IMG/VR virus record: IMGVR_UViG_2690316344_000004
Strand: one strand, 5' to 3'
From: a virus
Taxonomy: Duplodnaviria; Heunggongvirae; Uroviricota; Caudoviricetes
Length of the DNA: 19,134 nucleotides
Below are positions 15,001 to 19,134 of the stretch, one piece after another. Made by a program: the position numbers. Within the stretch, counting starts at the first letter, position 1, and each line of letters opens with the position of its first letter.

Positions 15001-18000
15001 CTGTCGTGGTGGTTCGGCATTCACCCAGGGCGCGGAGGGGACATTCAGTGCGGACACGGGGGCCAGCCAGGATTCGGCACGCTGGGGTGTGGGTAAACCG
15101 TTATATCAGGACCTGATTGCGCGCACTAAAGCTGCATTACAGAAGAACCCGAAAAATGTGTTGCTGGCGGTGTGCTGGATGCAGGGAGAGTTTGACATGA
15201 GCGCAGCCACCCACGCACAGCAACCTGCGCTGTTTACAGCCATGCTGAAGCAGTTTCGTGCTGACCTCTCCGTGTTTAACGCGCAGTGCCATGGTGGCAG
15301 TGCTGCAGATGTGCCGTGGATTTGTGGTGACACGACGTATTACTGGAAAAATACATACGCTACCCAGTACGACACCGTGTACGGCGGGTATAAAAACAGG
15401 GAGAGTGAGGGCGTTTATTTTGTGCCCTTCATGACAGACGGTAACGGCGTCAATACCGCCACTAACGCGCCGGCAGAAGATCCGGATATTCCGGCATCAG
15501 GATATTACGGTGCGGCATCGAGAACGAATGGAAACCAGGTATCATCAAACCGCCCGACACATTTCAGTTCATGGGCGCGCAGGAGCATTATTCCGGATCG
15601 TATTGTCTCTCTTCTGCCATTGTCCTGTAACTTCCGGACTTCAGCCCGCTCCTCATTTTACTCACAATATTATCCCGGCCGGGAGGATTCATGGCATTTA
15701 AACACTATGATGTTGTCAGGGCGGCGTCGCCGTCAGACCTTGCGGAAAAGCTGACACACAAACTGAAAGAGGGCTGGCAGCCATATGGCGGACCGGTTGC
15801 CATTACGCCGTACACACTGATGCAGGCGGTGGCTATTGAAGGAGATCCACAGGTCGGCCCTTCATCTGAGCCGGACTGGTTCTACGTGGTTGTGCTTGCC
15901 GGACAGTCCAACGGCATGGCCTACGGTGAAGGGCTTCCGTTACCGGATTCTTACGATGCTCCGGATCCGCGCATTAAACAGCTGGCGCGCCGCAGCACGG
16001 TAACTCCGGGTGGAGAGAGTTGTACGTATAACGACATCATCCCGGCTGACCACTGTCTGCATGATGTGCAGGATATGAGTACGCTGAATCATCCGAAGGC
16101 AGACCTGAGCAAAGGGCAGTACGGCTGTGTCGGCCAGGGCTTACATATTGCCAAAAAACTGCTTCCGTATATCCCGAATAACGCGGGGATCCTGCTGGTA
16201 CCATGCTGTCGTGGTGGTTCTGCATTCACCCAGGGCGCGGAGGGGACATTCAGTGCGGACGCGGGGGCCAGCCAGGATTCGGCACGCTGGGGTGTGGGTA
16301 AACCGTTATATCAGGACCTGATTGCGCGCACTAAAGCTGCATTACAGAAGAACCCGAAAAATGTGTTGCTGGCGGTGTGCTGGATGCAGGGAGAGTTTGA
16401 CATGAGCGCCGCCACCTACGCACAGCAACCTGCGCTGTTTACAGCCATGCTGAAGCAGTTTCGTGCTGACCTCACTGTGTTTAACGCGCAGTGTCATGGT
16501 GGCAGTGCTGTAAATGTGCCGTGGATTTGTGGTGACACGACGTATTACTGGAAAAATACATACGCTACCCAGTACGACACCGTGTACGGCGGGTATAAAA
16601 ACAGGGAGAGTGAGGGCGTTTATTTTGTGCCCTTCATGACAGACGGTAACGGCGTCAATACCGCCACTAACGCGCCGGCAGAAGATCCGGATATTCCGGC
16701 ATCAGGATATTACGGTGCGGCATCGAGAACGAATGGAAACCAGGTATCATCAAACCGCCCGACACATTTCAGTTCATGGGCGCGCAGGAGCATTATTCCG
16801 GATCGTCTGGCAACTGCTATTCTGAACGTAGCCGGGCGCACCTCAGCCTTCATCAGTGGTAAGGCACCGGAAATCAAACCCTCGCCCGGCGGCGACACGC
16901 CATCGGGTCCGTCTGCAGATACGTCCGTTCGCACAATCTCCCTGCTGCCGACAGCCGGAGAGGCTGCTGCGCAGGGCTGGACCATTAAGGACGGCGGAAT
17001 TCAGTTGTCGGGTGGTGTATTTAAGATCGCCAAGCAGAGCAATAAAACCTGGGCCCTGACGCGCCCGGTGGATGACGCAGTCTCCCTGCTGACACGGGGT
17101 GGCAGACTGAGCTGTAAGTTTCGACTGTCAGGCGCACTGACCAACAATCAGTTCGGTCTGGGAATTTATCTGTATACCGATGTAGCGTTACCTGACGTCG
17201 TGGCGATGACCGGGACTGGTAACCCGTTCCTGATGTCGTTCTTCACCCAGACCACAGACGGCAAACTGAATCTGATGCATCACAAGAAAGCAGGAAACAC
17301 AAAGTTGGGCGAGTTCGGGAATTACAGTAACGACTGGCAGACGCTGGAGCTGGTGTTCACCGCCGGCAGTGCCACGGTTACTCCGAAACTGAATGGAGTG
17401 GCTGGCCCGGCATTCCAGGTCATAAAAGACAGTCTGACACTGGGGCTGAATGCGCTGACGCTGACGGATATTACCAAAAATGCAGCGTATGGCGTTGAGA
17501 TAGAAAGTCTGGTGCTGGAGATAAATGCACCGGCATCATCATAAAAAGTGAGCCAGTCAAATGGAAGGTATCGTTAAACTCACCGGTAGTGTCAGTGGGT
17601 CGTCTGAGATGCCTGCATGAGTTATCAGAGCCATCAGTACTTAACTGGTGGCTTTTTTTATTGTTGTCAGCTTCCGGATAACGGGAGACGGGGTATGTAC
17701 CAGATGGAAAAAATCACAACAGGTGTGTCATACACCACGTCAGCGGTGGGAACGGGCTACTGGTTCCTGCAGTTGCTGGACAGGGTTTCCCCGTCTCAGT
17801 GGGCGGCAATAGGCGTGCTGGGGAGTCTGCTGTTTGGGCTGCTGACATATCTGACTAACCTGTATTTCAAAATCAGAGAGGACCGTCGTAAGGCTGCACG
17901 GGGAGAGTAATTCAATGACTCAAAACTATGAACTGATTGTGAAAGGGATCCGCAATTTTGAGAATAAAGTTACGGTAACTTTAGCGTTACGGGACAAAAA

Positions 18001-19134
18001 ACGCTTTGACGGTGAAATTTTAGACCTGGACATCTCGCTGGACCGTGTTGAAGGTGCCGCGCTGGAGTTTTATGAGGCAGCAGCCAGAAGGAGCATCAGA
18101 CAGGTCTTCCTGGATGTTGCTGCCGGGTTATGTGAAGGGGATGAGCAGTCGCCGGAAAAGCGCCCCGTAATTTTAGAGGCGCAGAATGTATGGATAACCT
18201 ACAAAGGAAAGCTACCAGGAAGAATTACTGGTTCTCTGAAGACTCCTCCGGAATCACAACCTTAAGTCACTGACCGGAACAGATAAACCTGTCCGTGGGC
18301 AGAAACCGATAAATCCTGATAAATATCCATGAACGCAAAAATCAGATACGGCCTGTCGGCTGCCGTTCTGGCACTGATTGCCGCTGGTGCGCCTGCGCCT
18401 GACATTCTCGACCAGTTTCTGGATGAAAAGGAAGGTAACCACACCACGGCATACCGTGATGGCGCGGGTATCTGGACCATCTGCCGCGGTGCCATCCTGG
18501 TGGATGGCAAACCTGTCGTTCCGGGCATGAAGTTGTCGAAGGAAAAATGCGACCGGGTTAACGCCATTGAGCGTGATAAGGCGCTGGCATGGGTGGAGAA
18601 AAACATCAGAGTGCCATTGAGTGAACCCCAGAAAGCGGGGATCGCGTCATTCTGTCCGTACAACATTGGTCCCGGTAAGTGTTTCCCGTCGACGTTTTAC
18701 AGACGAATTAATGCTGGCGATCGCAGGGGAGCATGTGAGGCGATTCGCTGGTGGATTAAGGACGGTGGCAGAGACTGCCGTATTCGTTCAAATAACTGCT
18801 ATGGACAGGTCTCACGGCGTGACCAGGAGAGCGCGCTGGCGTGCTGGGGTATCGACAGATAAGCAGAATATTTTGCTGAAAATAAGGCATGGCCACGCGG
18901 GCGGATAACATGAAATCCTGCGAAGTGGCGAAACGTAAGTGAATAAAAGTAAAAACCCCGTTTGTTGGCAGCAAGCGGGGTTTTGTTTTTATGGCAGTAA
19001 GCTATGGGAGGCTGCCTTGATTGATTTTAGCAAACTGATTCGGGAGATTCGAGTGATGGCTGAAAAATTATCCACCTGGAAGTTCATTCTTATCTGGCTG
19101 GTGTTTGTGATTATGGCCTCCGGTTATTTCATCG

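Follow-up and report, generated by a model that had tools for sequence, protein, structure and literature searches.

A ydfR-family (DUF1327) gene between the pinholin and SAR endolysin genes of a lambdoid phage lysis cassette, with a possible link to host RNase E

The window analyzed here is the whole of a 19,134-nt stretch of viral DNA (Caudoviricetes; IMG/VR record IMGVR_UViG_2690316344_000004). Its lysis genes are all on the + strand. The gene S for a class II (phage 21-type) pinholin occupies positions 17695–17910 and codes for 71 amino acids, with a dual-start motif (M1/M4, MYQMEK...). The longer reading frame 17617–17910 matches PF04971 (P21-type holin, E = 2e-32) and phrog_20/9876 ("holin"), and the actual start is the dual-start MYQM at 17695/17704, which yields a product of 71 or 68 residues. 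In RefSeq, an identical copy is named "class II holin family protein." The gene R for a SAR-type endolysin (phage lysozyme; 177 aa) follows at 18329–18862, with matches to PF00959 (E = 1e-23) and phrog_7 and a hydrophobic, SAR-like N-terminus. Upstream of S, a terminator-like hairpin with a T-run is present at 17627–17655 (+), and a Q-family antiterminator gene is found at 11500–12066.

Between S and R lies an open reading frame of the ydfR family (17915–18265, +), with an ATG start and 116 codons plus stop; the product (116 aa, 13.0 kDa, pI 5.6) is soluble. The frame, its length, and its good ribosome-binding site had been predicted, and all three are confirmed: a strong Shine–Dalgarno sequence (SD), GGGGAGAG at 17900–17907 (+), sits inside the last holin codons, ends 7 nt before the ATG at 17915, and serves ydfR here. 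The predicted 63 nt from the ydfR stop to the endolysin ATG (18266–18328) also hold, and 4 nucleotides lie between the holin TAA (17908–17910) and the ATG. As predicted, there is no transmembrane segment in the 116-aa protein (its Kyte–Doolittle 19-residue mean peaks at 0.69, while holin and endolysin reach 1.70 and 1.74). The GC content of the frame is 47%, vs. 53%–55% in the neighboring genes.

No promoter-like (sigma-70-like) or terminator-like sites were found between S and R, and the S–ydfR–R unit is transcribed only within the Q-dependent late operon. A promoter of its own, as in a moron active in the lysogen, is not supported, there being no sigma-70-like site. Likewise, a hidden RNA element in or after the frame is rejected, with no Rfam family matched in 17400–19134 and a fold of the ydfR–R spacer that is not significant (z = –0.10).

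Conservation of the frame in related phages had been set beforehand as a test, and the frame passes it, being unbroken in 250 of 250 related loci. A first dN/dS run on 80 loci was uninformative because these loci had been chosen at 97%–100% identity, and the run was repeated on a diverse set. In that set, pN/pS is 0.42 in the ydfR frame, against 0.74 and 1.27 in two control frames. The gene is under moderate purifying selection, although this selection is relaxed by comparison with that on the neighbors (holin, 0.17; endolysin, 0.09).

The gene was originally described as unrecognised, which does not stand. Over its full length, the protein belongs to Pfam DUF1327 (PF07041; E = 3.3e-42, 143 bits vs. 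a gathering cut-off of 25; residues 1–112 on positions 1–92 of the 93 in the profile), known at NCBI as the YdfR family, and ydfR of E. coli K-12 occupies the same slot. The window frame matches phrog_406 and phrog_2091, both of "unknown function." Identical DNA (100%) is found in NZ_CP148357.1, where RefSeq labels the product WP_053886122.1 a "YdfR family protein." In BLASTP, K-12 YdfR and the window protein share 59 of 74 residues (80% identical, 95% similar, E = 1e-45) over positions 1–74. The family HMM, homology to K-12 YdfR, the genomic slot, and curated annotation all agree in this assignment. The frame is, with near certainty, a genuine protein-coding member of the YdfR/DUF1327 family, an optional and mosaic accessory gene between phage-21-type pinholin and SAR endolysin in Escherichia/Shigella lambdoid (pro)phages.

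Outside this family, the searches returned nothing. The original statement that the protein has no likeness to lysis proteins is borne out, as no lysis family in Pfam, PHROG, or NCBIfam is matched by the 116-aa protein, and NCBIfam gives no family at all. With the PADLOC defence HMMs, neither the 116-aa nor a 176-aa allele matches any family at E ≤ 1. A sequence search of the PDB with the window protein gives only a chance match (E = 0.58), and one with a 329-aa allele gives none. In the long alleles (183–329 aa), Pfam finds DUF1327 and nothing further. In the literature, a search for DUF1327 leads only to a genome paper, and phrases combining ydfR and essQ lead only to unrelated matches.

The protein is predicted to be a small β3–α domain followed by a disordered tail, as judged from an AlphaFold2 model that reaches moderate confidence for residues 1–73 only (pLDDT 67–86; strands 5–14, 18–27, and 33–43, helix 50–73). 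The published AlphaFold description of the K-12 protein (P76160) agrees with this β-β-β-α plus tail plan (PMC13232886). Codons 1–75 (17915–18139, +) make up the conserved N-terminal core, with three predicted β strands and one long helix (pN/pS 0.42). This core is acidic (pI 5.0) and is kept down to ~50% identity across the family; its most conserved motif, with invariant alignment columns, is DRxEGAxLEFYEAxA. Codons 76–116 (18140–18262, +) form a variable tail module (...EKRPVILEAQNVWITYKGKLPGRITGSLKTPP, then ESQP; pN/pS 0.35), predicted to be disordered (pLDDT ~40). The C-termini of the family are mosaic, with several alternative tails and reading frames of 103–329 aa, and the window allele ends at a ~290-nt indel relative to longer spacers. 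The structural search gave no informative relative: with Foldseek, the model has nothing at E < 0.05 in either the PDB or BFVD, and its matches were set aside as generic likenesses of topology.

The YdfR protein of the K-12 Qin prophage (P76160, b1555) is also a full-length match to the family HMM and has the same N-domain and tail plan as the window protein. The K-12-type Qin cassette has the order essD/Q–ydfR–rrrQ–rzpQ; the 4-nt junction to the class II holin gene before ydfR is the same, and a lysozyme gene comes downstream. Past residue 74, the two C-termini are unrelated (...EKLSEKVESYLQHQYSFKIENPANKHERPHHKYL in K-12, the EKRP...KTPP module in the window). In K-12, the ydfR stop and the rrrQ start overlap, so that translational coupling would be possible, whereas the window has the 63-nt spacer. 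The long YdfR alleles (176/183 and 296/329 aa), found in E. coli/Shigella prophages and in Stx1a and Stx2c phages, are 85%–97% identical to the window protein over the N-core and the EKRP...KTPP module. There, the window allele stops, at the indel junction, while the long alleles continue as a coiled-coil-like extension (ALRSEKDDIES...), some with more domains that match no Pfam family, and are followed by an ORF-less spacer of 312–353 nt.

Cassettes of this type had been assumed to run from holin to endolysin without interruption, and the gene to be an insertion in them. The survey overturns both the premise and the supposed rarity. Of 5426 complete E. coli genomes, 4301 (~79%) carry ydfR-like DNA. 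A probe for the holin-to-ydfR junction matches 2146 E. coli genomes, and one for the direct holin-to-endolysin junction 652. The same 4-nt junction to the holin stop is found in 248 of the 250 loci surveyed, and no other holin type was seen beside ydfR in the loci examined. Pfam, RefSeq, and the K-12 annotation have for years recorded this gene with its family and position, and among E. coli prophages such an arrangement is in the majority, so that the discovery value is small. What the survey adds is that ydfR is optional, that it combines a constant core with exchangeable tails, and that the endolysin gene always goes without an SD where ydfR is present.

Among phage records, this holin type occurs in 434 and ydfR in 101. 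The distribution differs between Stx phages: ydfR is present in 41 of 47 records of Stx1a phages, in 15 of 17 of Stx2c, and in 2 of 124 of Stx2a. In the Stx2a phage LC567840, which is without ydfR, R begins just where ydfR does in the window, with 4 nt separating it from the holin stop. Compared with the window, the holin of the ydfR-less Stx2a phage is 100% identical and R 92% identical. With an identical holin in cassettes that lack it, ydfR is optional and therefore not needed for lysis.

In a scan of GTDB species representatives, ydfR is found in Escherichia and in two MAGs labeled Veillonella and Bacillota. In these two, contamination is suspected, because the loci are 70%–80% identical to E. 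coli copies. An exhaustive HMMER search gives only 65 clusters at 50% identity among 1.84 billion representatives. In these sequence searches, the family is essentially confined to Escherichia/Shigella.

The presence of ydfR changes the leader of the endolysin gene. In cassettes without ydfR, the SD GGGGAGAG at the 3′ end of the holin gene serves R; where ydfR is present, it takes over this SD, and R keeps an AU-rich leader without one. In the window, spacer and leader cover 18266–18328 (+; ...ccgataaatcctgataaatatcc ATG). None of the 247 ydfR-containing cassettes scored matches AGGAGGT over 4 nt or more within the 20 nt that precede R, and R starts at widely varying distances from the ydfR stop among loci (–4, 63, or ~320 nt). 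The translation of R is thereby probably lowered, or uncoupled from that of S. Could this effect in cis be all that ydfR brings, with a dispensable protein and an insert that, by parting R and the SD embedded in the holin gene, makes the S:R translation ratio lower or uncoupled? The loss of the SD and the wide range of distances fit such a role, but we judge it highly improbable, since the N-core is under purifying selection relative to the control frames, is conserved to ~50% identity, its frame being unbroken in 250 loci, and belongs to a protein that in K-12 accumulates and purifies in soluble form (PMC13232886), while a mere spacer would not hold a 75-codon core constant with everything downstream exchanged.

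The only functional data on the family come from a single study, of K-12 YdfR, published in 2026 (PMC13232886). In that work, YdfR(1–72), which binds the catalytic half of RNase E, was recovered three times in a two-hybrid screen, and full-length YdfR gave a two-hybrid signal with Rne1-597. A short-linker fusion of the full-length protein was positive with Rne1-597 only, and not with full-length Rne or Rne1-415. Rne1-598-FLAG co-elutes with Strep-YdfR, and DNase-resistant nucleic acid, RNA, co-purifies with it. The protein was overproduced and tagged, and a contaminant acting as the RNA binder is not excludable according to the authors. Overexpression of K-12 ydfR changed few transcripts in RNA-seq and left growth unaffected (PMC13232886).

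The N-core of the window protein spans the 1–72 fragment that bound RNase E, and the 80% identity (95% similarity) noted above covers this RNase E-binding region. The product, whose translation starts from the strong SD within the 3′ end of the holin gene, would be a small, soluble, cytoplasmic protein outside the lysis machinery. With its conserved N-domain it would bind host RNase E, in the catalytic N-terminal half, and RNA directly or indirectly, and this binding would adjust RNA turnover late in infection. We put forward such a late, host-directed function as a tentative proposal. The account as a whole, with the family identity, the RNase E function, and the consequence in cis for R, is the best explanation that we can offer and a quite possible one. 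The acidity of the N-core is unusual for a direct RNA binder and speaks against the RNase E reading; the strictly conserved site beside the lysis genes also speaks against it, in keeping a lysis-related role possible, as does the place of the Keio ydfR mutant among envelope-defect hits.

Two other roles for the protein have to be weighed. The original prediction offered a lysis-timing regulator or an unrelated gene riding on late transcription, and the second of these fits better: there is no promoter or terminator proper to ydfR, the gene is absent beside the 100% identical Stx2a holin, its GC content is lower, its C-termini are mosaic, and the K-12 homolog is tied to RNase E and RNA and not to lysis. 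In its strict form, with YdfR a moron-like passenger apart from both RNase E and lysis (host fitness, stress, exclusion, anti-defence, or hitch-hiking in a recombination hot spot), we consider it rather unlikely. The GC content, the presence/absence polymorphism among phages, the extreme mosaicism of the C-termini, the relaxed selection compared with the neighbors, and the very narrow family would all suit a passenger; in addition, the streptomycin MIC rises 3-fold on ydfR overexpression in one screen, and cold induction is reported for the Qin copy (PMC13232886). On the other hand, the gene is without a promoter of its own and in growing cells there is essentially no expression of the K-12 copy (PMC13232886), so that a role benefiting the lysogen is hard to see. 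No PADLOC family is matched, and the reproducible co-purification with RNase E's N-terminal half (PMC13232886) is left unexplained.

The other role, suggested by position, is that of a soluble cytoplasmic lysis-timing regulator, which would bind either the SAR endolysin or the cytoplasmic, highly charged C-terminus of the pinholin, and delay or sharpen triggering. In logic, this would resemble RIII, the cytoplasmic antiholin cofactor of phage T4. Several accessory lysis regulators are encoded beside holins (the S21-71 antiholin isoform, T4 RI/RIII, P1 LydB, Mu releasin), and YdfR is, like these, small, late, and adjoining the holin and endolysin genes. The constancy of the slot, with a single type of holin as partner, and co-translation at a high level from the SD in the holin 3′ end are in line with such a regulator. 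Descent accounts for the tight linkage to the holin, the start and the SD of ydfR being embedded in the holin end. In contrast to those regulators, YdfR has neither a TM nor a SAR segment, is homologous to no lysis family in PHROG or Pfam and to no PADLOC family, and can be dispensed with where the holin is identical; the antiholin function in the window cassette is already supplied by the dual-start holin. About three quarters of the deposited phages with this holin type lack ydfR, so that both lysis and its timing work without it. The CPRG-positive envelope hits of Paradis-Bleau et al. 2014 (cited in PMC13232886) include the Keio ydfR mutant, but this phenotype may be polar, through an action of the kan cassette on the downstream lysozyme gene rrrQ, and overexpression of K-12 ydfR produced no growth or lysis phenotype. 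A lysis-timing role is in our estimate distinctly unlikely.

To return to RNase E, phage-encoded modulators of the host enzyme are exemplified by T4 Srd, T7 gp0.7, and phiKZ Dip (PDB 5ft0). The proposed logic would be shared with these, a phage protein binding RNase E to reprogram RNA decay. No likeness in sequence or fold relates YdfR to Srd, gp0.7, or Dip, and YdfR differs from them in being expressed late, along with the lysis genes. YdfR proteins might represent an unappreciated class of prophage binders of the RNase E catalytic domain, delivered with the lysis genes and stabilizing or re-routing the decay of the long late transcript, an extension that we regard as doubtful. Linked to this extension is the possibility that the insert, in removing the SD of R, also adjusts the balance of pinholin to endolysin. 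If the RNase E reading is true, the prevalence of ydfR-like DNA would make this a very common phage takeover of host RNA decay. YdfR still stands on the uncharacterised list of the K-12 "y-ome," yet about four fifths of complete E. coli genomes carry ydfR-like DNA. In Stx1a and Stx2c phages, whose toxin release is controlled by lysis, the gene also lies within the lysis cassette.

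The ORF at 17915..18265 (+ strand, ATG start, 116 codons), originally predicted to be an unrecognised gene, belongs to a known family and lies at the position canonical for it. Pfam DUF1327 (PF07041) is matched along the entire protein (143 bits, cut-off 25; E=3e-42), as are PHROGs 406 and 2091, each labelled "unknown function". The family takes its name from ydfR of the Qin prophage of E. coli K-12; the K-12-type locus reads essD/essQ-ydfR-rrrQ-rzpQ, and there too ydfR starts 4 nt past the holin stop. Between the window protein and K-12-type YdfR, residues 1-74 are 80% identical and 95% similar, and the two are unrelated beyond residue 74; the tail, one of several alternatives in the family, is all that sets the window protein apart from its K-12 relative. 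In family profile searches, the product belongs to no holin, antiholin, spanin or defence family, in agreement with the lack of resemblance to lysis proteins noted originally, and no relationship could be demonstrated between it and the known phage RNase E modulators.

The upstream holin gene S (17617..17910 as a mechanical ORF, + strand) matches PF04971, "Bacteriophage P21 holin S". Read from the sequence, S sensibly begins with the dual-start MYQMEK (17695/17704), which yields a 71/68-aa pair, as is typical for phage-21-type pinholins. The downstream endolysin gene R (18329..18862, + strand) encodes a phage lysozyme (PF00959) whose N-terminus is hydrophobic and of the SAR type. The holin stop TAA (17908-17910) is separated by 4 nt from the ATG of the ORF, and the 3' end of GGGGAGAG (17900-17907) lies 7 nt before that ATG; 63 nt separate the ORF stop from the endolysin ATG. 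The ORF has a GC content of 47% (53-55% in the neighbour genes) and its product, 13.0 kDa with a pI of 5.6, has no hydrophobic segment by Kyte-Doolittle 19-residue means (maximum 0.69; holin 1.70, endolysin 1.74). The position, length, RBS, spacing to both neighbours and absence of a TM segment are thus all as originally described.

Of 5426 complete E. coli genomes, 4301 carry DNA resembling ydfR, with a maximum of 8 copies in one genome. With a 164-nt probe spanning the junction of holin and ydfR, 2146 E. coli genomes show a match over at least 80% of its length; with the corresponding probe for a direct junction of holin and endolysin, 652 do. Therefore, the "interrupted" cassette is the commoner form in E. 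coli prophages, and holin followed directly by endolysin is not the norm that had been assumed. Among deposited phage genomes, 434 records contain this holin type and 101 contain ydfR; sorted by phage name, ydfR occurs in 41/47 Stx1a and 15/17 Stx2c phages but only 2/124 Stx2a phages. A survey of 250 related loci, drawn from IMG/VR, GTDB genomes and RefSeq, finds the same insertion with an identical 4-nt junction in 248, and an R21-like endolysin lies 3' of ydfR in every locus whose contig reaches that far. Taxonomically, the family has a very small range: no more than 65 YdfR-family clusters emerge when 1.84 billion cluster representatives are scanned exhaustively with HMMER, and a scan of species-representative genomes yields only Escherichia and two MAGs resembling contamination. 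Two surveyed loci (L007 and L009), from GTDB MAGs labelled Veillonella parvula and Bacillota, carry E. coli-type holin-ydfR-endolysin cassettes (70-80% identity to the window protein, holin and endolysin ~80-88% identical); these most likely represent binning contamination by Escherichia prophage DNA and not a true host range.

The pinholin-SAR-endolysin cassette carries ydfR as an optional passenger. In the Stx2a phage LC567840, with a holin 100% and an endolysin 92% identical to those of the window, R starts at the very position of the ydfR start in the window, 4 nt past the holin stop. Therefore, GGGGAGAG in the last holin codons serves R where ydfR is absent and ydfR where it is present. 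In all 247 scorable ydfR-containing cassettes, no SD consensus match of at least 4 nt occurs within 20 nt upstream of R. The sequences show that ydfR displaces the SD from R; this would lower or uncouple R translation, and suggests that the two cassette forms may differ in their S:R translation ratio. In ydfR-containing cassettes the R leader (within 18266-18328 in the window) is conserved, AU-rich and ends in ...cctgataaatatcc ATG; its secondary structure is not significant (z=-0.10) and it has no match in Rfam. How far R lies from the ydfR stop depends on the allele: -4 nt in the Qin type (overlapping ATGA), 63 nt in the window and 312-353 nt in long alleles. The 63-nt spacer aligns to both ends of the longer ones, of which ~290 nt are missing, and the last codons of the window allele (ESQP-stop) fall at an indel junction. 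A stretch of 312-353 nt before R, free of forward-frame ORFs and conserved among some ~70 loci (L004:4553-4873, outside the window, and equivalents), follows both the long (169-211 aa) and the 114-aa alleles.

The frame of ydfR is intact in 250/250 loci and so is conserved in related phages. Among 69 distinct N-core sequences (the conserved N-terminal ~75 residues), pN/pS is 0.42 in the annotated frame vs. 0.74 and 1.27 in the other two; it is 0.35 in the tail module. Constraint is weaker than on the neighbours (0.17 for the holin and 0.09 for the endolysin). That ydfR is purely a cis-acting spacer is disfavoured by these selection data and quite improbable. No promoter-like or terminator-like site was found between S and R; therefore, ydfR is expressed only from, and depends on, the Q-antiterminated late transcript (Q-family gene at 11500-12066), so that the gene does ride on late transcription, as had been suggested.

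The product of ydfR is soluble and has a small folded N-domain. All family members join the constant N-core to exchangeable C-termini, with ORF lengths of 103, 104, 114, 116, 169, 173, 176, 183, 206, 211, 296 and 329 aa. Invariant positions are concentrated in the segment R44-x-E46-G-A-x-L-E-F-Y-E54 and in the helix that comes next. An AlphaFold2 model built on a 27-sequence alignment predicts antiparallel strands (5-14, 18-27, 33-43) and a long helix (50-73) with pLDDT 67-86, and a disordered tail (74-116, pLDDT ~40). The homology search thus leads to DUF1327 and the structure search to no relative: Foldseek of the model against PDB and BFVD gives nothing at E<0.05, and fold searches are uninformative. 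No Pfam family matches the extra domains of long alleles, and the 329-aa allele has no hit by sequence in the PDB. Synonymous divergence is lower in the tail module (pS 0.11) than in the core (0.27), which suggests that the tail has spread recently by recombination. The tail module EKRPIILEAQ-VWITYKGKLPGRITGSLKTPP is found also in protein P0146, encoded outside the window, after a coiled-coil segment and without the N-core; therefore, the tail behaves as an independent, shuffled module.

What remains of interest is the function of the whole family. The K-12 y-ome (PMC11551758) still counts YdfR as an uncharacterised Qin gene, and the only substantive study is that of Göpel et al. 2026 (PMC13232886). 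In their bacterial two-hybrid assays with an RNase G bait, a fragment for YdfR residues 1-72 was recovered three times; this fragment interacts more strongly with RNase E constructs, and Rne1-597 gives a signal with full-length YdfR. FLAG-tagged Rne1-598 co-elutes with Strep-YdfR, and DNase-resistant nucleic acid is abundant in the eluate. Overexpression changes few transcripts and leaves growth unimpaired, and ydfR is essentially silent in growing K-12 (PMC13232886). By analogy with these data, we tentatively propose, as the most likely of the readings considered, that the protein, made from the late transcript, may bind the catalytic half of host RNase E through its conserved N-domain and would so influence RNA decay late in infection; in cis, the presence of ydfR would alter R translation. 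It is rather doubtful that YdfR is a passenger with another host-directed role. On overexpression, the streptomycin MIC rises 3-fold in one screen (PMC12924614), and the Keio ydfR mutant is among CPRG-positive envelope hits (Paradis-Bleau et al. 2014). The Keio cassette lies directly 5' of the lysozyme gene rrrQ, and a polar effect is therefore suspected for the latter phenotype. A cytoplasmic lysis-timing factor, close to the regulator of the original prediction, is unlikely; the gene does sit between S and R, but we infer that YdfR stands outside the lysis machinery, since cassettes that lack it function with an identical holin.

A second small gene of the lysis cassette (18938-19134, cut by the window end) is found between R and the Rz-like spanin. 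Its complete copy in L001, the prophage with an identical ydfR, is at L001:7025-7240 (short version, L001:7142-7240) and precedes the spanin (L001:7242-7709, phrog_13). The gene product is a single-TM peptide, MAEKLSTWKFILIWLVFVIMASGYFIGQIRWW, that matches phrog_6632 ("unknown function"); the PGAP version has 71 aa and a GTG start. A terminator-like hairpin (18952-18984) occurs 5' of this gene. Two tandem NanS-p-like esterase genes overlap by 64 nt, the first (14477-15754, 425 aa) with DUF1737+SASA and without DUF6645, the second (15691-17544, 617 aa) with DUF1737+SASA+DUF6645; the pair resembles the result of a partial tandem duplication, or else a recombinant junction. Three tRNA genes (CAT, TCG and TCT anticodons) and an STnc100 sRNA match (13738-13987 and 14064-14254) are located 3' of a DNA methylase gene and 5' of the esterase genes. 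No toxin gene is among the ORFs annotated in the window from the tRNAs to the lysis cassette, nor is stx annotated in the corresponding region of the L001 prophage; both points suggest an stx-less relative of Stx phages. The early region of the prophage gives Rfam matches, scored above gathering, to sok (hok/sok-type antitoxin RNA; 9319-9493, + strand, 114.7 bits) and to the DicF sRNA (1752-1803, - strand, 76.7 bits).
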